A DNA stretch of 64,000 bases from Spirochaetia bacterium (GTDB lineage Bacteria; Spirochaetota; Spirochaetia; SZUA-6; Bin103). Positions 4,242-37,066 of this stretch are shown in pieces. The notes beneath the pieces were generated by a model, which had not been told where the DNA came from, did not search any database, and saw only the letters and a list, made by a program, of their open reading frames with translations. A program made the translations under genes and the position numbers. The stretch covers positions 2,240,001-2,304,000 of the forward strand of contig CBDAOI010000004.1 of the NCBI GenBank assembly GCA_965198005.1. The letters are read 5' to 3'. Position 1 is the first letter of the stretch. The number at the start of each line of letters is the position of its first letter.

Positions 4242-5818
4242 ATGCGTTCGTTCAACACCGCTGGTCCCGTCAAGCCCGACAAGCACTATTGCGTCCCGCC
4301 GCTTGAGCGCATCGACCTGGACGACGTCCTTCGGCTGGTGCGAGACGAGCAGTACTTCGTGCTGCACGCGCCGCGGCAGACCGGCAAGACGTCGGCGCTG
4401 CTGGCGCTGGCCGAGGTGCTGAACGGGCGCGGCTACCGGTGCGTGTACGTTACCGTCGAAACCGCCCGCACCGCGCGCGACGACGTGCAGCGGGCGATGC
4501 GCACGGTGCTCGCCACGCTGGCGTCGCAGGCGCGGGCGACGCTGGATGACGGCTTTCTGGACGACATCTGGCCGGACCTTCTGGCGCGAGTCGGTCCGGA
4601 CTTGGCGCTAGGCGTAGCTCTGGGGCGCTGGGCGCAGGCATCGCCGGGACCGCTGGTGCTGCTGATCGACGAGATCGACACGCTGGTGGGCGATTCGTTG
4701 CTGTCGGTGCTCCAGCAACTCCGCGCCGCTATCCCGGCCGCCCGGAGCGCTTCCCGCACAGCGTGGTGCTGTCCGGCATGCGCGACCTGCGCGACTACCG
4801 CATGGGCGCCGCCGGCAGCCCGTTCAACATCGCCGCGAAGTCGCTGCGGCTGGGCGACTTCTCGCGCGAGCAGACACAAGCGCTGCTGGGCCAGCACACC
4901 GAGCAGACCGGCCAGGCGTTCGCGCCCGAGGCGCTGGAGGCGGTGTGGATGCAGACCCGCGGCCAGCCCTGGCTGGTGAACGCACTGGCGTACGGCGCCT
5001 GCTTCGAGAACAAGACGCTGCGCGAAGACCGTTCCCGCACGGTGACCGCCGACGACGTCGCCGCGGTGCGCGAGGACCTGATCGTGAACCGGGTGACCCA
5101 CCTGGACTACCTGGCGGACAAGCTGCGCGAGGATCGCGTACGGCGGGTGATCGAGCCGATGCTGAGCGGCGCGGAGCGGCACGCCTTCACGGACCGCGAT
5201 GTCGCGTACGTGCGCGACCTGGGGCTGGTGGCCCGCGACGCGCCGTTGCGGGTGGCCAACCCGATCTACGCCGAAGTGCTGCCGCGCGAACTCGCGTGGG
5301 TGGTGCAGGAGACGCTGGAGCTGTCGCCGCCGCGGTACCTGAGAACGGACGGCAGCCTGGACGCGGAGTTGCTGATGGCGGAGTTCCAGAGCTTCTTCCG
5401 CCGCCACTCCGAGCACTGGAGGGACCGCTTCGCCTACGCGGAGGCGTGGCCGCAGTTGCTCCTGCAGGCGTTCTTGCAGCGCGTCGTGAACGGCGGCGGC
5501 CGCATCGAGCGGGAGTACGCGCTGGGCAGCGGGCGGGTGGACCTGCTGATCGTGTGGCCGCTGGCGGACCGGGTGCAGGAGTTGGTGGTGGAGTGCAAGG
5601 TGGTGCGCGACCACGACGGGCTGGAGAGCGTCGTAGACGAGGGCGTGGAGCAGACGGCGCGGTACGTGGACCGCAGCGGGGCAGAGGCGGGGCACCTGGT
5701 CGTGATCGACCAGCGGGAGCACCGGAGCTGGGAGGAGAAGATCTACCGCATCCGGCGCCGCTCCGCGCATCTGCGCCGCGGCGGCGGTGCCGTGCCGGTG
5801 GCAGTGTGGGGGATGTGA
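4242..5818 (+). CDS. AAA-family ATPase with C-terminal PD-(D/E)xK-like domain; 1-bp frameshift near 4728
   Basis: APRQTGKT Walker A, LLIDEID Walker B, REY...GRVDL...VECK; adding one G restores RAGYPGRPERFPHSVVL. Confidence 0.85.
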
Positions 5819-5920
5819 GCGGACTCGCGGACCGTGATCGCACAGGTAGATCAGGAGATGGGGCCGAAGCGGTGCTCATGGACACATGGACAGATGTTTG
5901 ATCACGGTCTACGGTGGCAC

Positions 5921-5954
5921 CCATGGGCACGTTGAGATTCGGCTGGCATATGCC
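5921..5954 (+). repeat. 34-bp exact inverted copy of the LLM gene start (12700-12733)
   Basis: ccatgggcacgttgagattcggctggcatatgcc is the reverse complement of 12700-12733. Confidence 0.95.
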
Positions 5955-6143
5955 GAGCGGGCCGAGCGGTTGACAGTTTGCCGCCCGCGTGCCACCGCCA
6001 GCGCTGAAGTGCACGTCCTGGCGGAACGCGCGAGGCGCCGCCGGAAAAAAAGTGAAAAATGATGCAATGAGCGCTAATGAGCGCTTGACCGCTCTGGCGG
6101 GGATGTGCGATGGTATCGGGGTTGGGGACTCGAACGGATACGG

Positions 6144-6521
6144 ATGATGCTTGACTACGCACTGCAGCCCTGCCATCGGCCCACGCTACTCGCGCCCGAG
6201 CACCGCCGCCCGGCGTGCCGCTTTGGCCCATCCCGTCCCGTCTACCCCCCCCCCCCGGCGAGATCCAAGCACCTCGTAGGGCCTAGCCGCTCACCGCGGC
6301 GCGTCCACACCTACTGCGCCGCCAGCGGCGGCCTAGCTCCCGTAGACACCCACACCCAGCGCACCACGCCCGCGCGCAGCGGCGGTCGCGGCGCCGTCAG
6401 CCCCACGCCGTGGGGCGACCATCTGCACCATGCGAAACGGCCGGAGTTTCCGGCCACACAACAAACAACACGGGTACCGGGATCCATCCCGAGCCCGAAA
6501 CCGAGGAGGAGTACGCTATGA
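6144..6521 (+). promoter_or_regulatory. Leader ORF with poly-C tract (C12 at 6245-6256), stop overlapping the SBP start (ATGA)
   Basis: Homologous without indels to 30915-31191; TGA 6519-6521 overlaps ATG 6518. Confidence 0.7.
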
Positions 6522-8290
6522 CTCCAAAACTCATTGGGCTGACGCTGGCGTTCGCGCTGGCGGCTACCGTTACGTTCGCCAGCCCCGCCGGCGAGGACGC
6601 GGGCGCGGCAACCGACCGCGAGATGGTGATGGACCCATCCACCGGCGAGATGATAAGCGCGCCGGAGTACGGCGGCACGTTCACCTATGCACTCAAGGAA
6701 GAGCCGGGGGGCATCGACGCCGTGCTCGCCGGTGGTTGGGGATCCATCATCTACAATCTCGTCGTCGAGAATCTGACGATCCAGGACTGGTCAACGCCAA
6801 GAGACGAGCACGACTTTGCGACGGCCCTCCCGCCGACGCACACCATCGGGCTCCTGGCCGAGAGCTGGTCGCAGCCCGACCCTCTTACCTACGTCCTCAA
6901 CATCCGCCAGGGCGTTCGCTTTCATGACAAGGCACCGGTGAACGGTCGCCTGTTTACCGCCGAGGATGTCGAGTTCAACTTCCACCGGTTGTTTGGCATC
7001 GGCAGCGGCTACACCGAACGCAGCGAGTTTATTAATGCCGGCGAGTACACCGGCGTCGAGCTCGAATCGGTAACCGCCACCGACAGCTCGACGGTGGTGA
7101 TCAAGCTGCCAGCGCCAAACAGCGGTGCTCTTGTGGCGATCATCCAAGGGGGCATGAACATCATGTACGCCCCCGAGGTCATCCGGGCAAAGGGGAACGC
7201 GAGTGATTGGCGGGATCTGGTCGGCACCGGGCCCTATACACTCACCGACTGGACCAAGGGCAGCTCCGTTACCTATGACAAGAATCCCGACTACTGGCGC
7301 TTCGACGAGAAGTTCCCGGAGAACCGGCTCCCCTATTTCGACCAGATACGCGCGCTGGTCATGCCCGAGGTGGCGACGTACGTCTCAGCGCTGCGCAGCG
7401 GTCAGCTCGATTACATAGGTGCAGCAGGTGGCACTACCACGTTGCGGGGTGTCGACCAGTTAGAGAGCCTGCAGCGCACCAACCCTGAGCTGAAGGTCTA
7501 TTCGTTTGCGTTACGGTCGGACCAAGATGTCGGCATGAACATTAAGGTCAAGCCCTTTGACGACATCCGGGTACGCAAGGCGATGCAGATGGCCCTCAAC
7601 CTCGACGAGATCGACCAAGGATACTATAAAGGCTTGGCGGATGCCATCCCCCAGGGGCAGATAAGCCGCTTCAATACTGCCGTCGCGACCCCGTTCGAAG
7701 ATTGGCCGGCAGATGTCAGGAAGGCGTTCGAGTATGACCCAGCCGGTGCCGAGGCGCTGCTCGACGAGGCGGGGTATCCGCGCGGCGCCGACGGCGTCAG
7801 ATTCGAGACCGAGATCGTACACCAACCGCGCTACGATCTGAACTACACCGAGCTCCTGATCAGTTATTGGGACGCCATCGGCGTCAAGGCAGAGGTCGTC
7901 ATTCTGCCACTGGCTGAGCACGTGGCCGCAAGAACAGAGGGAAACTATGAGCTCATCACGGCGGAAGGGGCTTACAAGGGCTCCGCAGCGGCTATTTTGG
8001 GGAAATTCCTCTCGACATCATGGAACACCTCCGAGGTCGACGACGAGTGGTACAGGGCCAAGTTCGAAGAGTACCAAGCCGCGACCACGCTTGACGAACA
8101 AAACGGGGCGCTCCGCGAGCTGGAGATGTACTCGATCGAGCAGTTCTGGCAGCTGGCCGGGGCGGTGGGGCCAGAATTCTCGGTGACCCAGCCGTGGGTC
8201 GCGGGATACAACGGCGAGTCGACTTTGACGAAGTCCGGCCAATATCTGGCTTTCGCGCGCCTGTGGTTCGATAGCAGTCTGAAGCCGTAG
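6518..8290 (+). CDS. ABC transporter substrate-binding protein, family 5 (SBP1)
   Basis: GAGGAG RBS, signal peptide ending VTFA, LAESW, GVRFHD, GTGPY, DIRVRKAM motifs. Confidence 0.92.
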   Translation: MTPKLIGLTLAFALAATVTFASPAGEDAGAATDREMVMDPSTGEMISAPEYGGTFTYALKEEPGGIDAVLAGGWGSIIYNLVVENLTIQDWSTPRDEHDFATALPPTHTIGLLAESWSQPDPLTYVLNIRQGVRFHDKAPVNGRLFTAEDVEFNFHRLFGIGSGYTERSEFINAGEYTGVELESVTATDSSTVVIKLPAPNSGALVAIIQGGMNIMYAPEVIRAKGNASDWRDLVGTGPYTLTDWTKGSSVTYDKNPDYWRFDEKFPENRLPYFDQIRALVMPEVATYVSALRSGQLDYIGAAGGTTTLRGVDQLESLQRTNPELKVYSFALRSDQDVGMNIKVKPFDDIRVRKAMQMALNLDEIDQGYYKGLADAIPQGQISRFNTAVATPFEDWPADVRKAFEYDPAGAEALLDEAGYPRGADGVRFETEIVHQPRYDLNYTELLISYWDAIGVKAEVVILPLAEHVAARTEGNYELITAEGAYKGSAAAILGKFLSTSWNTSEVDDEWYRAKFEEYQAATTLDEQNGALRELEMYSIEQFWQLAGAVGPEFSVTQPWVAGYNGESTLTKSGQYLAFARLWFDSSLKP

Positions 8291-8558: not shown

Positions 8559-9524
8559 ATGAGGGCGTATGCCGTCCGGCGGCTGTTGATGGTCATTCCG
8601 ACCCTGTTCCTCGTCACCGTCCTGGTGTTTCTGTCGGTCCGCTTCCTCCCGGGGGATGTGATCGATGTGATGGAAGCGCGCTTACAAGCCACGCAAGGTG
8701 CGACGGGGGGGATCGACCGCGGCGCCCTCGAGCGCCGGCTCGGATTGGATGTGCCGGTCTACGTCCAGTATGGGCGCTGGGTGGGCGGGATCTTCCTCCG
8801 CGGCACCCTCGGCCCATCACTGACGGGCAGCGACACCGTGGAGCAGAGCATCGCCGAGCGGCTGCCGGTGACCGTTCAGCTCGGCCTGATGGCGATCGTC
8901 ATCGGGCTGGTGATCGCCGTGCCGGTGGGCATCTATTCGGCGATTCGCCAGGATACGGCCGGCGACTACGTGTGGCGGTCGCTGGCCATCCTCGGCCTGG
9001 CGACGCCCAACTTCTGGCTGGCCACCATGGTCATCGTGTTTCCGGCAATCTGGTGGGGGTGGTCGCCACCGCTGGTGCTGGTCTCCTTCGCGGAAGACCC
9101 GCTCGGGAGCCTGGCCGGATTCGCCATTCCCAGCCTGATCCTGGGGACCTATCTGTCCGCGGCCACCATGCGGATGACCCGGACCATGATGCTGGAGGTG
9201 CTCAGGCAGGACTACATCAGGACCGCCTGGTCCAAGGGACTGCTGGAGCGCGCGGTGATCCTGCGCCACGCCGTCAAGAACGCGCTCATCCCGGTGGTGA
9301 GCCTGGTTGCCCTGCAGGTGCCGATCCTGGTGGGCGGCTCGGTGATCATCGAGAACATCTTCAACCTGCCGGGGCTGGGGCGGCTGCTGGTGAATGCGCT
9401 TTCGATCAGAGACTACCCGATCGTGTCGGGCGTCAACCTGGTGTTCGCCATCGTGGTGGTGGCGGTCAATCTGGTCACCGACCTCTCGTACGCGCTGATC
9501 GACCCGCGCGTGCGCTACCGGTAG
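8559..9524 (+). CDS. Peptide/nickel ABC permease, DppB-like (B1)
   Basis: QDYIRTAWSKGL EAA motif, IENIFNLPGLG. Confidence 0.93.
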   Translation: MRAYAVRRLLMVIPTLFLVTVLVFLSVRFLPGDVIDVMEARLQATQGATGGIDRGALERRLGLDVPVYVQYGRWVGGIFLRGTLGPSLTGSDTVEQSIAERLPVTVQLGLMAIVIGLVIAVPVGIYSAIRQDTAGDYVWRSLAILGLATPNFWLATMVIVFPAIWWGWSPPLVLVSFAEDPLGSLAGFAIPSLILGTYLSAATMRMTRTMMLEVLRQDYIRTAWSKGLLERAVILRHAVKNALIPVVSLVALQVPILVGGSVIIENIFNLPGLGRLLVNALSIRDYPIVSGVNLVFAIVVVAVNLVTDLSYALIDPRVRYR

Positions 9525-30580: not shown

Positions 30581-30695
30581 TAGCGGCGGTCGACGCGCTG
30601 CGAAGCCGACTTGTCGCGGAGCTATGAGAACCAAAGCTACGCGACCGTAGTGGAGGAGCAGGCGCTGACCCCTGGAACCTCGACGACACGCGCGC

Positions 30696-30818
30696 TTGAC
30701 GGCTGTTGCGGCGTCGCCTATGATGACCGCCTTGGGGTTCCGGCGGATGCAGATGATGCATGTGTGCGTGACTGCATGACGACACGCGCTTGACGGCTGT
30801 TGCCGCTTCGCCTATGAT
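30696..30818 (+). promoter_or_regulatory. Tandemly duplicated sigma70 promoter
   Basis: TTGACG-17-TATGAT at 30696-30724 and 30790-30818; truncated third copy at 21996. Confidence 0.8.
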
Positions 30819-30840
30819 GAGGGCCTTGGAATCGCGACCG

Positions 30841-31191
30841 ATGGGAATGCATGACCACACGTCCCCGCGCAGCCACCCGTTAGCCTCAATGCCGCCGGTA
30901 CGTCTACCGCTCTACCCCCCCCCCCCCCCGAGATCCAAGCATCCGGTAGGGCCTGACCGCTCACCGCGCCGCCTCCACGTCTCCGGCGCCGCCGGCGGCG
31001 GCGCGGCTCCCGTAGACAGCCACGTCCATCGCACCACGCCCGCCCGCGGCGGCGGTCGCGGCACCGTCAGCCCCACGCCCCGGGGCGACCACCTGCACCA
31101 TGCGAACCAGCCGGAGTTTCCGGCCAAGGAACAACAAACACGGGTACCGGGATGCATCCCGAGCCCGAAACCGAGGAGGAGTACACTATGA
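30841..31191 (+). promoter_or_regulatory. Leader ORF with poly-C tract (C15 at 30915-30929), stop overlapping SBP3 start
   Basis: Homologue of 6144-6521; TGA 31189-31191 overlaps ATG 31188. Confidence 0.7.
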
Positions 31192-32960
31192 CTCCAAGAC
31201 TCATTGTGCTGCCACTGGCGCTCGCGCTGGTGGCTACCGTTACGTTTGCCAGCCCCGCCGGCGAAGACGCGGCCGAGGGGATGGAGAAGGAGATGGTGCT
31301 CGCGCCACAGTATGGCGGGACCATGACCTTTGCCGTCCAGCGGGAGCCTCCGACGACCGACCCCATGTTCGGCGGCGGGGCGTCACGGGGCGTCGATGGC
31401 GTTGCCGAGAAGCTGGGAATGGTCGACTGGGGAATCGACCGGGAGGTGTACGACCTCACCGGTGCTTTCTTCTACTTCCCGCTGTCGGTCCTGACCGGTC
31501 GACTGGCGGAAAGCTGGGAAACGCCGGACCCCACCACGACCATCTTCAACATCCGCCAGGGCGTTCACTGGCACGACAAGGAACCGATGAACGGGCGGGA
31601 GCTGACGGCCCAAGATATCGAATACAACTTTCACCGGGTATGGGGCTTGGGCAGCGGCTTCACCGCACCTCATGAGATCTATACCGGCCCACTCGCCAAC
31701 ATACTCGTCGAATCGGTAACGGCGACCGACGAATACACGGTTGCAATTGAGCTGAAGCAGCCACAGCTCGGGGCGTTGCAGGTTATCCTCATCGACTGGG
31801 GTGGGTTCATTCTGCCCCCCGAGGTCATTGAGCAACACGGTGACGTGAAGGAATGGAGCAACCTGGTGGGCACCGGGCCCTTCATGCTGACGGACTGGGT
31901 CGACGGCAGCTCGACTACCTGGACCAGGAATCCGGACTACTGGGGCTACGACGAGAAATTTCCGGAGAACCGTCTGCCCTATTTTGACGGAGTAAGAGCC
32001 CTGATCATGAAAGACCCCGCCACCATTCTGGCGGCCCTGCGCTCGGCTCAGGTGGACTACGTAGGCTGGATCGGCGTCGCTGAAATGCTCTATACCGGCG
32101 AGAAAGAGAGTATCGAGCGGACCAACCCGGAAATCTCCTTCTACCCGTGGTCGATTCGGTCGGAGAATGCTTTCAATTTCAACATGGCCACGGACAATCC
32201 GTTCTCGAAAGACGTCAGGGTGCGCCGGGCGATGCAGATGGCACTGGACCTCGAGACGATGAACGACACCTACTTCAAGGGGACTGCCAGATGGAAACCT
32301 CGGGGGGTGCTCGGGGATGCCATCGTAGGGTATACGACGCCATTTGAAGAGTGGTCTGAAGAGGTCCGGAAGGGCTATACGTACGACCCGGAAGGGGCCG
32401 AGAAACTCCTGGATGAGGCTGGCTATCCGCGCGCCGCCGACGGTATTCGAATCAAGGCTACGGAGCACCATTTCGAACATGCCGATTTCGACTATGCGCA
32501 ATTGGCGGTCTCCTACTGGAAGGCCATTGGCGTCAATGTGGAGATTATCACATCGGAAGCTGCTACTCATGGAGCTCGTCAACGCGAATACACCTACGGC
32601 GACATGATCTCCTGGATATCTGGCATGGACTTTCTTGACCCTGTCGTAGCGCTTGGCCTAGCTTACTCGAAGGGAGGATTCAACCCCTCGGGGTACAACG
32701 ACCCGGAGTTTGACCGCCTGTATGAAGCCGCCCGAGACGCGGCCACCATCGAGGAGCAGCAGAGGGCGGTCAAAGCGGCAGATATGTACTTTACAAGCAA
32801 CCACGTCTACGTATGGGGTCCTAACGCTCCCAAGTTCAACGCGGTCCAGCCATGGGTCAGAGGTTATGCGGGCGAACAATCCCTGGGATCCGATGACCGC
32901 ATGGCCATCTTGGCCCGCCTCTGGTTTGATCATGGGATGAAGACAGAAATGGGGCAGTAG
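31188..32960 (+). CDS. Family-5 SBP (SBP3)
   Basis: RBS, signal peptide, LAESW, GTGPF, DVRVRRAM. Confidence 0.92.
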   Translation: MTPRLIVLPLALALVATVTFASPAGEDAAEGMEKEMVLAPQYGGTMTFAVQREPPTTDPMFGGGASRGVDGVAEKLGMVDWGIDREVYDLTGAFFYFPLSVLTGRLAESWETPDPTTTIFNIRQGVHWHDKEPMNGRELTAQDIEYNFHRVWGLGSGFTAPHEIYTGPLANILVESVTATDEYTVAIELKQPQLGALQVILIDWGGFILPPEVIEQHGDVKEWSNLVGTGPFMLTDWVDGSSTTWTRNPDYWGYDEKFPENRLPYFDGVRALIMKDPATILAALRSAQVDYVGWIGVAEMLYTGEKESIERTNPEISFYPWSIRSENAFNFNMATDNPFSKDVRVRRAMQMALDLETMNDTYFKGTARWKPRGVLGDAIVGYTTPFEEWSEEVRKGYTYDPEGAEKLLDEAGYPRAADGIRIKATEHHFEHADFDYAQLAVSYWKAIGVNVEIITSEAATHGARQREYTYGDMISWISGMDFLDPVVALGLAYSKGGFNPSGYNDPEFDRLYEAARDAATIEEQQRAVKAADMYFTSNHVYVWGPNAPKFNAVQPWVRGYAGEQSLGSDDRMAILARLWFDHGMKTEMGQ

Positions 32961-33071: not shown

Positions 33072-34028
33072 ATGCGAGCTTATATTGTCCGGCGGCTGCT
33101 GCTCATCATCCCTACGCTCATAGTATTGAGCATCCTGGTCTTCCTGTCGGCGCGCTTCATCCCGGGCGATATCATCGACACCATGATAGCCGCTGACCAC
33201 AATGCCATGACTGGCCTGAACCGTGAGGTTCTGCTGCATGCCCTGGGGCTGGACGTACCGGTCCACGTGCAGTATGGACGCTGGCTGGAAGGGATTCTGC
33301 TGCGCGGCACCCTCGGCAACTCGCTGCTCGGAGATTGGCCGGTAGAGAAGAAGATCGCGGGCAGACTCCCCGTCACCCTGGAGCTCGGTTTGCTGGCGAT
33401 CTTGATCGGGCTGCTGATCGGCGTGCCGATCGGCATCTACTCGGCGATTCGCCAGGATACAGCCGCTGACTACGTGGGGCGCACGGTCGCCATCTTCGGC
33501 CTGGCTACGCCGAACTTCTGGCTCGGGGTGATGGTCATGACCTACCCGTCGATCTGGTGGGGCTGGGCGCCGCCGATGCGGCTGGTTCCTGTCACCGAAG
33601 ACCTGCTGGGGAATCTGGAGGTGTTTCTCCTTCCCAGCCTGATTCTCGGCACGGCGCTGTCGGCAGCCACCATGCGCATGACGCGCACGATGATGCTGGA
33701 GGTGCTGCGCCAGGACTACATCAGGACCGCTTGGTCGAAGGGACTGCGGGAGCGGGTCGTCGTCATCCGGCACGCCATCAAGAACGCCCTCATCCCGGTC
33801 GTGACCCTGATCGGCCTGCAGTTGCCGATTCTGGTCGGCGGCGCCGTCATCATGGAGAACATCTTCAACCTGCCGGGCCTGGGGCGTCTCATGCTCACGG
33901 CACTCTCTGACCGAGACTACCCGGTCATCTCGGGCATAAACATGTTCTTCGCGACGGTGGTGGTGGCGATCAATCTGATGATCGACTTGATCTACGGCTA
34001 CCTGGATCCCCGGGTCCGCTACACGTAG
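33072..34028 (+). CDS. DppB-like permease (B3)
   Basis: EAA motif QDYIRTAWSKGL. Confidence 0.93.
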   Translation: MRAYIVRRLLLIIPTLIVLSILVFLSARFIPGDIIDTMIAADHNAMTGLNREVLLHALGLDVPVHVQYGRWLEGILLRGTLGNSLLGDWPVEKKIAGRLPVTLELGLLAILIGLLIGVPIGIYSAIRQDTAADYVGRTVAIFGLATPNFWLGVMVMTYPSIWWGWAPPMRLVPVTEDLLGNLEVFLLPSLILGTALSAATMRMTRTMMLEVLRQDYIRTAWSKGLRERVVVIRHAIKNALIPVVTLIGLQLPILVGGAVIMENIFNLPGLGRLMLTALSDRDYPVISGINMFFATVVVAINLMIDLIYGYLDPRVRYT

Positions 34029-34051: not shown

Positions 34052-34993
34052 ATGGGGGACGCCGCACGGACACCATCAGCGGGGCTGGCTCACTTTCTGG
34101 TCCGGCTGTGGCGCGAGAAGCCGCTCGGCACCGCCGGCGGCGTGGTCGTGTTGGGCTTGATTCTGGTGGCGATCTTCGCCGACGTGCTGGCCCCCTACCC
34201 GTTCGATGAAGTGCACCTGAGAGCGCTGTTGAAGCCCCCGTCGGCCGAGCATCTGATGGGTACCGATCAGTTGGGGCGCGACTTCTTGAGCCGCAATATC
34301 CACGGGGCTCGAGTTTCCATGCTCGTGGGCGTGGTCGCGACCAGCCTCAACGTCCTGGTTGCGGTGTTGATCGGCGGCACGGCCGGATTCTTCGGTGGCA
34401 AGCTGGACCTGGTGGTGCAGCGGTTGGTCGATGCCTGGATGGCGTTTCCGGGGCTGCTGCTGTTGCTGACGATCATGTCGCTGGTCGGACAGGGCCTGCT
34501 GCAACTGATCCTGGTGCTGGGCATCTCCGGCGGCGTGGTGGCCTCGCGGCTGGTCAGAGGCGCGGTGATCGCGGTCAAGGAGAACGACTACCTGCAGGCG
34601 GCCACGGCCACCGGCAGCACCCGGATGGGAGCGCTGGTGCGCCACGTGCTGCCCAACGTGGCGGCTCCCATCATCGTCGTGTTCAGCATCAACATCGGCG
34701 CGGTGATCATCAGCGAGGCGTCGCTGAGCTTCCTGGGATTCGGTCTGTCGCCCGAGATTCCGAGCTGGGGGACGTTGCTGAGCCGGGACGGCCGCAAGTA
34801 CATGGAGCAGGCGCCGTGGCTGGCGCTGTGGCCCGGTCTGTGCCTGACCCTCACCGTATACAGTCTCAACATGTTCGGCGACGCGCTGCGGGACCTGCTG
34901 GACCCGCGCCTTCGGGGCGGCGGCGGCCGTCTCGGAACCCACCGCGGCCGGGTGCCGCAACCCAAACCCGGTCGCAGCCGGTCACGCGGGTGA
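34052..34993 (+). CDS. DppC-like permease (C3)
   Basis: Near-identical to C2. Confidence 0.93.
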   Translation: MGDAARTPSAGLAHFLVRLWREKPLGTAGGVVVLGLILVAIFADVLAPYPFDEVHLRALLKPPSAEHLMGTDQLGRDFLSRNIHGARVSMLVGVVATSLNVLVAVLIGGTAGFFGGKLDLVVQRLVDAWMAFPGLLLLLTIMSLVGQGLLQLILVLGISGGVVASRLVRGAVIAVKENDYLQAATATGSTRMGALVRHVLPNVAAPIIVVFSINIGAVIISEASLSFLGFGLSPEIPSWGTLLSRDGRKYMEQAPWLALWPGLCLTLTVYSLNMFGDALRDLLDPRLRGGGGRLGTHRGRVPQPKPGRSRSRG

Positions 34994-35037: not shown

Positions 35038-35550
35038 TTGCCGCGCTACGCGCATCTGTTGATCGACCAGACGCAGGTGGGACCGGAGGAGTTGCGCGGG
35101 GAGCTGCTTGGTCGCATCGCGCAACTGGCGATGATGGCGGCGTTCCGGGCGAGTTGGCCGGTGTTGCAGCGGCTGGTGCCGCTGCTGGCGGAGTTGGCGC
35201 AGGTGGGCGGCAGCGAAGACCTGCGGCGGATCGTGGTGTACATTGCGACCACGACGCGGGAACCGGAGCGCTGGCACAGATTCGCGGAGGCAGTACGGCG
35301 ACAGGTGCCGGGAGGTGGAGAACTGATGAACAAGACCGAAGAGATGATCGAAATCTACGGCGATATGAGGGAGCGTGAAGGCCGTCAGGAAGGTGAGTTA
35401 CGCGGCAAGGTGCAAACCATCGGGGGACTCGTGAGACGCGATGTCCCCTGGTCCATCATCGAAGCGGCCACCGGGATCGACGAGGCCACCTTCGACGGGC
35501 TCAAGCACCAACTCGACGCCGCTGACGGCGACGCCACCCACGCCAACTGA
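35038..35550 (+). pseudogene. Rpn copy lacking promoter and nuclease domain; retains intact RpnS-like ORF 35326-35550
   Basis: Equivalent of ~25760-26256 deleted at a 'tg' microhomology. Confidence 0.9.
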
Positions 35551-35556
35551 ACCGCG

Positions 35557-37066
35557 CCCCCCCCCCCCCCCGAGATCCAAGCACCTCGTAGGGCCTGACC
35601 GCTCACAGCGCCGCGTCCACAACTCCTGCACCGCCGGCGGCGGCGTAACTCCAAAACTCATTGTGCTGACACTGGCGCTCGCGCTGGTGGCTACCGTTAC
35701 GTTTGCCAGCGGCGACGACGAGGAGCCGGCCGCGGCGATGGAAAAGGAGATGGTGCTCGACCCCACGACCGGCGAGATGGTCACCGCCCCCGAGTACGGC
35801 GGGACACTGACCTTCGTCGTCAAGCTGGAGCCGCCGAGTGCCGACCCCTTGTTCGGCAGCGGGGCGTCACGGGGACCCGATGGCGTCACCGAGAAACTGG
35901 GCATGGTCGACTGGGGAATCGACCGGGACGTGTACGACCTCACCGGCGCTTTCTCTTACTTCCCGGTGTCGGTCCTGACCGGTCGACCGAAGAGGTCCGG
36001 AAGAGCTACATGTATGACCCGGAAGCGGCCGAGGCGCTGCTTGACGAGGCCGGGTTACCGCGCGGCGCCGACGGCACCAAATTCGAAATCGCGCTGCAAC
36101 ACTACGAGTTTTTCGACGTGGACTACGTGCAGTTGGCCGCCGCCTACTGGAAGGAGATCGGCGTGGACGTAGACATCGACGTGACGGAACGAAGCGCACA
36201 CGGAGAGCTGGGAGGCTCAGCTTCCCGGCTCTCTTCTTCAATCGCAGCGATTGGTTGCAACGGCCCGCTGGGGAATCTCGAGATGTTCATCATTCCCGGC
36301 CTGATCCTGGGTACGGCGCTGTCGGCAGCCACCATGCGCATGACGCGCACCATGATGCTGGAGGTGCTGCGCCAGGACTACATCAGGACCGCTTGGTCCA
36401 AGGGACTGCGGGAGCGGGTCGTCGTCATCCGGCACGCCATCAAGAACGCCCTCATCCCAGTGGTGACCCTGATCGGCCTGCAGTTGCCGATTCTGGTCGG
36501 CGGCGCCGTCATCATGGAGAACATCTTCAACCTGCCGGGCCTCGGTCGTCTCATGCTGACCGCGCTGACCGACCGCGACTAGCCGGTCATCTCGGGCATC
36601 AACCTGTTCTTGATGGGTACCGACCAGTTGGGGCGCGACCTCCTGAGCCGCAATATCCACGGGGCGCGTATTTCCATGCTCGTGGGGGTGGTCGCGACCA
36701 GCCTCAACCTCCTGGTTGCGGTGCTGATCGGCGACACGGCCGGATTCTTCGGTGGCAAGCTGGACCTTGCAGTGCAGCGGGTTGTCGACGCCTGGATGGC
36801 GTTTCCGGGGCTGCTGTTGTTGCTGACGATCATGTCGCTGGTCGGACAGGGGCTGCTGCAACTCATCCTGGTGCTGGGCGTCTCCGGCGGCGTGGTGGCC
36901 TCGCGGCTGGTCCGAGGCGCGGTGATCGCGGTTAAGGAGAACGACTACCTGCAGGCTCGGCGCGGTGATCATCAGCGAGGCGTCGCTGAGTTTCCTGGGA
37001 TTCGGACTGTCGCCCGAGATTCCGAGCTGGGGGACGCTGCTGCGCCGGGACGGGCGCAAGTACATG
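35557..37066 (+). pseudogene. Multiply deleted fourth copy of leader-SBP-dppB-dppC module
   Basis: C15 leader, ATG-less signal peptide, two SBP pieces, spacer, dppB piece with TAC>TAG, two dppC pieces, all colinear. Confidence 0.9.

Follow-up and report, generated by a model that had tools for sequence, protein, structure and literature searches.

Why would a run of cytosines lie inside a leader reading frame that ends exactly on the start codon of a transporter gene, and does the length of that run set the output of the gene? This question is raised by a 64,000-nucleotide (nt) stretch of DNA from a Spirochaetia bacterium (GenBank assembly GCA_965198005.1, contig CBDAOI010000004.1, positions 2,240,001 to 2,304,000), referred to here as the window, in which two genes for family 5 solute-binding proteins (SBPs), SBP1 and SBP3, and a decayed SBP remnant are each preceded by a poly-C tract. 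A first-pass annotation, made from the sequence alone, had proposed that slippage in the tract switches the whole operon off by ending translation of the leader early. Based on the window, the whole genome assembly and its relatives, we give a probability of roughly 55 % to the reading that a hypermutable repeat in a translated upstream open reading frame (uORF) toggles between early and late termination and in this way sets downstream expression, probably via Rho polarity.

Frame logic at the C tracts

The leader before SBP1 is called copy 1 here, that before SBP3 copy 2 and the decayed one copy 3; the promoter-like sites, leader features and SBP genes of the window described below lie on the plus strand. 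The uORF of copy 1 (6144..6521, from ATG 6144 to TGA 6519-6521, 125 codons) begins with a peptide of family D (MMLDYALQPCHRP...), continues in its long frame across a C12 tract (6245..6256, a simple sequence repeat followed by GGC to 6259) and ends with a TGA that overlaps the SBP1 ATG at 6518. The two other frames close at TAG 6277-6279 and TAG 6284-6286 (6277..6286). Copy 2 repeats this arrangement: its uORF (MGMHDHTSPRSHPLA..., 30841..31191, TGA 31189-31191, 116 codons) is likewise in the long frame, crosses a C15 tract at 30915..30929 and overlaps the SBP3 ATG at 31188 with its TGA, while the shifted frames stop at TAG 30947 and TGA 30954 (30947..30956). In copy 3 the C15 tract (35557..35571) lies 6 nt past the stop of an ORF at 35038-35550 and is followed by a leader remnant with TAG 35589 and TGA 35596, which breaks off about 75 nt past the tract and is fused to a remnant of an SBP signal peptide and N terminus (35572..36000). 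GAGATCCAAGCA stands directly after the tract in all three copies, and the off-frame stops lie at +20/+27 past the tract in copy 1 and at +17/+24 in copies 2 and 3.

The description of the window in the first-pass annotation is borne out by these data. This holds for the positions and composition of the tracts (C12+GGC, C15 and C15 at 6245-6259, 30915-30929 and 35557-35571), for the leader ORFs of copies 1 and 2 ending in TGA over the SBP ATG, for the two off-frame stops of each of the three copies including the exchange of TAG for TGA, and for the decay of copy 3, a truncated leader joined to an SBP remnant. The alignment of copies 1 and 2 from GAGATCC to the TGA is free of indels despite many substitutions, as had been claimed (34 substitutions, 0 indels over 262 nt). 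Their leader RNA is also C-rich, with 40.6 and 41.1 % C, 29.5 and 30.6 % G and C/G ratios of 1.38 and 1.34; both exceed 1.32, the 95th percentile of C/G in random 400-nt windows.

The genome (4.89 Mb, 66 % G+C, 4 contigs) holds 121 runs of C or G of at least 9 nt, and 95 of 10-28 nt. When the 95 tracts are read as C, 75 are followed on the same strand by an SBP_bac_5 homologue that starts no more than 1300 nt away (median 425 nt); when they are read as G, not one of them is. A strand-specific C tract is thus a general trait of leaders within one large family of SBP paralogues. About 146 SBP1-like high-scoring segment pairs of more than 300 residues were found in the genome by tblastn, a very large expansion of a single family. 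The strict strand specificity, together with a position about 90 nt downstream of promoter-like sites, rules out a role of the tract as a promoter spacer.

The 15-nt length and common frame that the first-pass annotation had noted for the window copies do not hold as a rule. Tract lengths (9 to 28 nt) show no 3-periodicity, and the 95 tracts of at least 10 nt split 25/40/30 over the length classes 0, 1 and 2 modulo 3. Runs of (AC)n lie next to some tracts in this genome. Repeat units at the junction are never a multiple of three, the sole 12-nt repeat seen being followed by C15. Some leaders contain two serial C tracts (C16 and C18, 51 nt apart, at C4:339777-339861, and five similar places); these may represent a double switch or one tract halved by an inserted module.

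Frame closure past the tract could be followed in 84 leaders. Exactly two frames close within 60 nt in 65 of them, one frame in 14, none in 4 and all three in a single leader, in line with the earlier expectation that the out-of-frame stops are conserved. The frame left open is also the longest past +60 in 39 of the 65, where one third would be expected. The long frame reaches the SBP start without a stop in all 21 SBP-type leaders (12 from this genome and 9 from congeners), against 8.0 expected from dinucleotide shuffles. The predicted ATGA overlap is conserved only in part: it is present in 7 of the 12 copies of this genome, whereas 4 run in frame into the SBP and 1 has two frames open.

The major leader family comprises 38 copies of more than 500 nt. 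Another landmark is a mini-ORF, MILKEPHARAA, which has a strong Shine-Dalgarno sequence and is present in 26 of all leaders. In 19 of these 26 the long frame terminates at the stop of the mini-ORF, and in 20 it shares the mini-ORF frame, at distances ranging from 185 to 525 nt. A long G+C-rich hairpin, whose 5' arm is made up of the 3' half of the mini-ORF, lies 110-180 nt upstream of the SBP start (for example in the C3:282317 region). Judged by its sequence, this combination looks like a second, attenuator-like control layer.

The strongest argument for the frame logic, as far as sequence comparison can carry it, comes from the relatives. Four congeners have a tandem 10-nt repeat, (CTCCGKCCTG)n, instead of poly-C between homologous flanks; the arrays contain 1 to 19 or more units and occur at 4 to 8 places per genome. 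The frame pattern past this 10-mer agrees with that past poly-C: stops lie at about 24, 28 and about 260-278 nt, and the last of them is the ATGA at which the SBP begins. Another relative has an 8-nt repeat (GGCACTCC, 10 units) instead of the tract before the major leader, while 16 of 18 places in that genome have poly-C of 6-15 nt. The apparent design, a slippage-prone tract in a leader ORF with two early-stop frames and one frame reaching the SBP start, is strongly supported by these comparisons.

The distribution of this architecture is restricted. Seven C13 tracts in genomes G009, G010 and G011 lie in unrelated contexts, none with an SBP downstream, and the SBP-type leader was not found in G009 and G010; the architecture is therefore not present in every genome of the genus or family. 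One of these C13 runs (G009:C1:1166716) begins a spacer in a congener's CRISPR array. In JGI metagenome contigs there was no match to the end of the family A module plus C8, nor to the conserved post-tract motif. This motif occurs together with a module B unit on a 4.1 kb contig binned as Chloroflexota, which probably reflects a binning error rather than a second phylum. Counts of C12 windows in fragmented metagenome-assembled genomes did not enter the analysis, as they contain runs at contig ends that may be sequencing artefacts.

Upstream modules, leader RNA and neighbouring genes

The sequence upstream of a tract always belongs to one of a few repeated modules. Module homology stops exactly at the tract, and the same module is found joined to different leaders. 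Each module contains a promoter-like site, of the form TTGACN-17/18-TAnnnT in modules beyond copy 2, and a start codon 20-40 nt past this site opens a short ORF that enters the tract. Copy 2 has two tandem promoter-like sites, TTGACG-17-TATGAT (30696-30724 and 30790-30818; 2 found against a shuffle mean of 0.1). For copy 1, a putative site was read from the sequence as TTGACC, an 18-nt spacer and GATGGT (6085..6114), and was not called by a strict promoter scan. Its -10-like hexamer (6109-6114) is GATGGT where a 98 % identical paralogue (C1:215702 region) has TATGGT, and the copy 1 promoter may be weakened relative to this paralogue.

Module B is the commonest: of 132 BLAST hits, 92 were retained as copies, and the module often occurs in tandem units of about 126 nt. 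Its start ATG is retained in 90 to 91 of the 92 copies, and third codon positions make up 8 of the 11 most variable sites between start and tract. The variants include the synonymous pairs CGC/CGT, CAT/CAC, GAT/GAC, GTG/GTC and ACG/ACC, and an insertion of 12 nt keeps the frame. In family A, GGAGGG and an in-frame GTG are present in 17 of 18 modules. A conserved start combined with third-position variation would be the signature of a translated N-terminal peptide, a case that is weaker for families B, C and D. Tandem arrays of the ~126-nt module B unit reach about 6 units (C4:372796-373212, C4:745457-745990 and C4:2049049-2049808); each unit has a promoter-like site and a leader peptide start, and a C tract follows only the last unit.

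Downstream of the tract the conserved features are those of nucleotide sequence and RNA structure. An invariant 30-nt block contains both hidden stops, and two hairpins lie just ahead of the SBP ribosome-binding site; across 21 sequences, 3 of their 14 pairs show compensatory changes. In copy 1, hairpin 1 (GGCCGGA-GUU-UCCGGCC, 6439..6455, within the long frame) has compensatory changes at 2 of 6 pairs, and hairpin 2 (6471..6497), immediately 5' of the ribosome-binding site, has a single pair changed from AU to UA in 4 of the 21 sequences. The SBP1 Shine-Dalgarno sequence, GAGGAGGAG, follows at 6503..6511.

Both conserved hairpins are followed by A-rich sequence, and no terminator-like site was found on the plus strand in 5900-6600 and 30600-31300, which speaks against a classical amino-acid attenuator with an intrinsic terminator. 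Rfam gave no match at gathering score across the whole window, which speaks against a riboswitch or leader described there; in the region 5950-6600, relaxing the threshold to E values up to 1 added nothing beyond a snoRNA match at chance level (16.4 bits, with the cut-off at 50). Rho is encoded in the genome (698 bits, above cut-off), and so is EF-P (205 bits). The presence of Rho, the lack of an intrinsic terminator and the excess of C over G allow Rho polarity. The Rho match (C3:1094517-1095761) lies in an open frame of 583 residues compared with the 415 positions of the family model, and this length suggests an N-terminal extension or insertion.

The genes behind the leaders are those of ATP-binding cassette (ABC) importers. 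SBP1 (6518..8290; PF00496, 1.3e-61) is followed by a permease gene at 8559-9524 (PF00528 over 8559-9521), and SBP3 (31188..32960; PF00496, 8.5e-64) by permease genes at 33072-34028 and 34052-34993. The operon behind copy 3 (35038-36600) has decayed: its SBP is truncated, and an ORF at 36010-36582 fuses pieces of SBP_bac_5 and permease. The ORF at 35038-35550 belongs to no Pfam family, and the ORF at 4763-5818 upstream of copy 1 has a weak match to a PD-(D/E)XK nuclease (PF08011, E 8e-4), below cut-off.

Frame states and the weighing of explanations

The mechanism that we favour can be outlined as follows. A sigma-70-like promoter module would supply a start codon and a conserved N-terminal peptide of 20-35 residues that enters the repeat. 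Two of the three frames past the repeat would run into conserved stops within about 20-45 nt, and the third would stay open to a fixed landmark, either the SBP start (by ATGA overlap or in-frame entry) or the conserved mini-ORF stop. Slippage by a number of nucleotides that is not a multiple of three (1 nt here; 2, 8 or 10 nt elsewhere) would shift the uORF between an immediate stop and read-through of the leader. Early exit of ribosomes would leave a long pyrimidine-rich leader naked, so that transcription is cut short, most likely by Rho, and/or would leave the structured region before the SBP ribosome-binding site folded; in both cases the operon would be low. Where the long frame is read, ribosomes would cover the leader and carry translation to the SBP start, and the operon would be on. 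The anatomy and its conservation, the frame logic, the strand specificity and the link to SBP genes are shown by the sequences; the scheme supposes in addition that the tracts mutate within the population, that the uORF is translated, that the long frame is the 'on' frame and that Rho is the effector.

Frame states are consistent with such a scheme. Based on the conserved peptide of the uORF, a state could be assigned to 78 leaders of this genome, and 40 of these are in the long frame (binomial P 0.0008 against one third if leaders were independent, which they are not). By tract class the long frame is found in 20 of 34 leaders with C9-11, 7 of 17 with C12-15 and 13 of 27 with C16-30, and in relatives with short C6-C11 tracts in 9 of 12. 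An excess over one third that is largest at short tracts would agree with selection that favours the long frame and frequent slippage that leads away from it, and assembly errors in long homopolymers may contribute to the states.

Hints of tract lability come from contigs and from paralogues. For the copy 2 tract (30915), metagenome contigs, the only material here, include a single contig with C16 (run X1) and a single contig with C14 (run X9). Three paralogue pairs have near-identical flanks, and in two of them the tracts are of unequal length (28 and 16 nt in one pair, 18 and 9 nt in the other). A BLAST search with the flanks for orthologous tracts in relatives returned only 85-91 % matches, without clear orthology. 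Sponge metatranscriptomes are among the sequencing runs containing the stretch; contigs of the RNA run X8 cover the SBP3 gene body and none covers 30806-31106, a pattern that is not readable as attenuation.

A number of observations weigh against the frame switch. Only a weak Shine-Dalgarno-like GGA or GGGG precedes the start in families B, C and D. Diversity of the post-tract long frame by codon position is even over the 38 copies of the major family (0.304/0.342/0.330), copies 1 and 2 differ by 12/11/11 substitutions at the three positions, and their 6 synonymous compared with 20 non-synonymous differing codons are no better than those of other frames. These even values and the lack of a Pfam family for the leader ORFs of copies 1 and 2 rule out the leader ORF as a conserved protein; of the design first proposed, the tract within a leader ORF, the two stopping frames and the third frame reaching the SBP stand. 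Stops are scarce in every frame of the C-rich leaders, and single copies are therefore not significant. Past about +90 all three frames are stop-free in the window copies, and the open frame on which the first-pass annotation had drawn is no signal in these two copies alone, as dinucleotide shuffles also keep it open (P 0.42 and 0.56). The C/G bias is modest, as the ratio averages 1.2 across the 84 leaders and only 14 % exceed the random 95th percentile. Paralogues and congeners are related, and all counts overstate independence. No more than 4 of 10 congener leaders that carry the 10-mer are in the long frame. In the assembly, a short frame is found for about half of the uORFs, which fits switching and also frame irrelevance or long-read homopolymer assembly errors. 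RNA polymerase slippage on runs this long could, moreover, blur a frame encoded in the DNA.

Of the alternatives, a frame-independent RNA rheostat survives best, and we consider it unlikely. Here the pyrimidine-rich repeat, be it poly-C, (CUCCGUCCUG)n or (GGCACUCC)n, would serve as a Rho loading site or as an anti-Shine-Dalgarno-like sequestrator whose length tunes attenuation gradually, and the surrounding ORF would be incidental or merely masking. Poly(C) is a strong activator of Rho, which is encoded here; every repeat kind at the site is C/U-rich on the sense strand only (75 against 0 of 95), CUCC is contained in both the 8-mer and the 10-mer, and the lack of 3-periodicity in tract lengths agrees with a length-dependent device. 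A rheostat leaves unexplained, however, why two frames have conserved stops in 65 of 84 leaders while all three are closed in only 1, why the third runs on uninterrupted to a fixed end (21 of 21 leaders of SBP type and 19 of 26 with the mini-ORF), why a start codon with third-position variation is conserved upstream, and why repeat units of 3n are lacking at the junction itself.

The features could also be by-products of mobile or recombining modules, with C runs as insertion targets or joints between promoter cassettes and leaders, ORF features arising from composition and descent, and no switch at all. We regard this as rather improbable. In its favour, module homology ends exactly at the tract with one module combined with different leaders, and a foreign ORF abuts the tract in copy 3. 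Outside the window, an insertion sequence (IS) element of the IS4 type with 27-nt inverted repeats lies between two C10 runs (C4:2039858-2041516). It encodes a transposase of 390 aa (DDE_Tnp_1, 2.1e-16), and its right end consists of three tandem outward-facing promoter-like units (TTGACC-17-TACGGT). Of 16 occurrences of the IS end motif across the genome, 14 have six or more C within the next 14 nt; family E modules correspond to the right end of this element and family A shares its last 40 nt. This suggests that the element targets C runs and brings promoters with it. The tracts are thus insertion targets as well, which accounts for the sharp boundaries of the modules and not for the frame logic. 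Module mobility leaves unexplained why the tracts are linked to SBP genes on one strand only, why off-frame stops and an open third frame are conserved in different leader families and species, why other frame-shifting repeats take the place of poly-C where the flanks are homologous, and why long-frame states are in excess. A functional repeat and an insertion hot spot can be compatible.

A leader that senses proline or EF-P activity, in which ribosome stalling on proline codons of the C run sets read-through as the proline-rich leaders of the Salmonella mgt operons (mgtL, mgtP type) would suggest, was the alternative raised in the first-pass annotation and is very improbable: poly-C does encode 3 to 9 prolines in any frame, EF-P is encoded and the downstream genes are peptide-type SBPs, yet no proline run is encoded by the 10-nt and 8-nt repeats that congeners have at this site (they give, for example, APSCSVLLRP repeats), tracts of relatives go down to C6, that is 2 prolines, and near-identical modules contain anything from 3 to 9 prolines.

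Returning to the frame switch, its generalization is more tentative than the mechanism at single leaders. In this lineage of sponge-associated spirochaetes, about 80 ABC-importer operons of the roughly 146 family 5 SBP paralogues would each be gated in this way, the kind of repeat (1, 2, 8 or 10 nt) would have been exchanged in evolution with the three-frame logic kept, and an IS with outward promoters would target the same tracts. We would give such a new class of contingency locus, the 'phase-variable uORF', a little less than an even chance.

Comparison with known systems

To our knowledge, nearly all known cases of repeat-driven phase variation come from pathogens and concern surface structures, and they act by breaking the regulated gene or its promoter. 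Contingency loci of this kind include the Neisseria opa genes, with pentamer repeats in the signal-peptide region, and Haemophilus lic1, with CAAT repeats at its 5' end. As there, a repeat prone to slippage, with a unit length not divisible by three, sets the frame past a start codon, at many loci per genome, and the repeats are long (C9-28 in this genome; the 10-mer with 1 to 19 or more units and the 8-mer with 10 units in relatives). Unlike in opa and lic1, the repeat lies in a separate upstream ORF and the SBP coding sequence is never frameshifted; the genes concerned encode nutrient-binding proteins of a sponge symbiont, whereas opa and lic1 are concerned with surface antigens.

Homopolymers also vary in promoters, as in the poly-G of the Treponema pallidum tpr genes and the poly-C of Bordetella fim. 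In 5' untranslated regions, G repeats are targeted by small RNAs according to a paper on Haemophilus simple sequence repeats (PMC12721329). The leaders described here share with these systems a variable homopolymer upstream of the regulated gene, one that is known in a spirochaete as well. They differ from them, where promoter spacing or small-RNA pairing is at work, in that the tract is placed some 90 nt into the transcript, as part of an ORF, and is followed by frame-specific stops.

Rho attenuation that depends on a uORF is described for tnaC, speFL, cruR and others in a 2025 review of Rho (PMC12360218). The resemblance lies in a short ORF, here presumably translated, in a long leader where ribosome position would set the exposure of the RNA, with Rho present and no intrinsic terminator. 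While tnaC, speFL and cruR sense a ligand or a stall, the input here would be a heritable frame change in the repeat, with Rho as the presumed effector. The same review reports phase variation through Rho with invertible DNA switches, in E. coli fim and C. difficile flgB (PMC12360218). The outcome proposed here would resemble what is described for these two, a stochastic and heritable ON/OFF state through premature termination in the leader; there a rut site is exposed by recombinase inversion, whereas here slippage in the uORF repeat would take this part. We found no case of a slippage repeat inside a uORF in the open full-text literature, a coverage that leaves supplements and subscription journals outside.

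Compared with these systems, the same mutational device seems here to be wired into a leader ORF, giving a uORF of attenuator-like type with a heritable stochastic input, deployed across an entire family of paralogous nutrient-binding proteins of a symbiont. If this holds, a clonal population would have a huge combinatorial repertoire of uptake states without mutating its transporter genes, a mechanism open to test by which metabolic bet-hedging or a division of labour could arise within the host, and the genome would offer a natural set of about 80 parallel 'experiments' on uORF-mediated polarity. As a practical warning, homopolymer lengths in long-read metagenome-assembled genomes of these organisms would carry regulatory information, and errors in them matter. 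Set against opa and lic1, the homopolymer promoters, the uORF attenuators and the invertible Rho switches, the system is a new variant in which known mechanisms are combined at an unusual scale.

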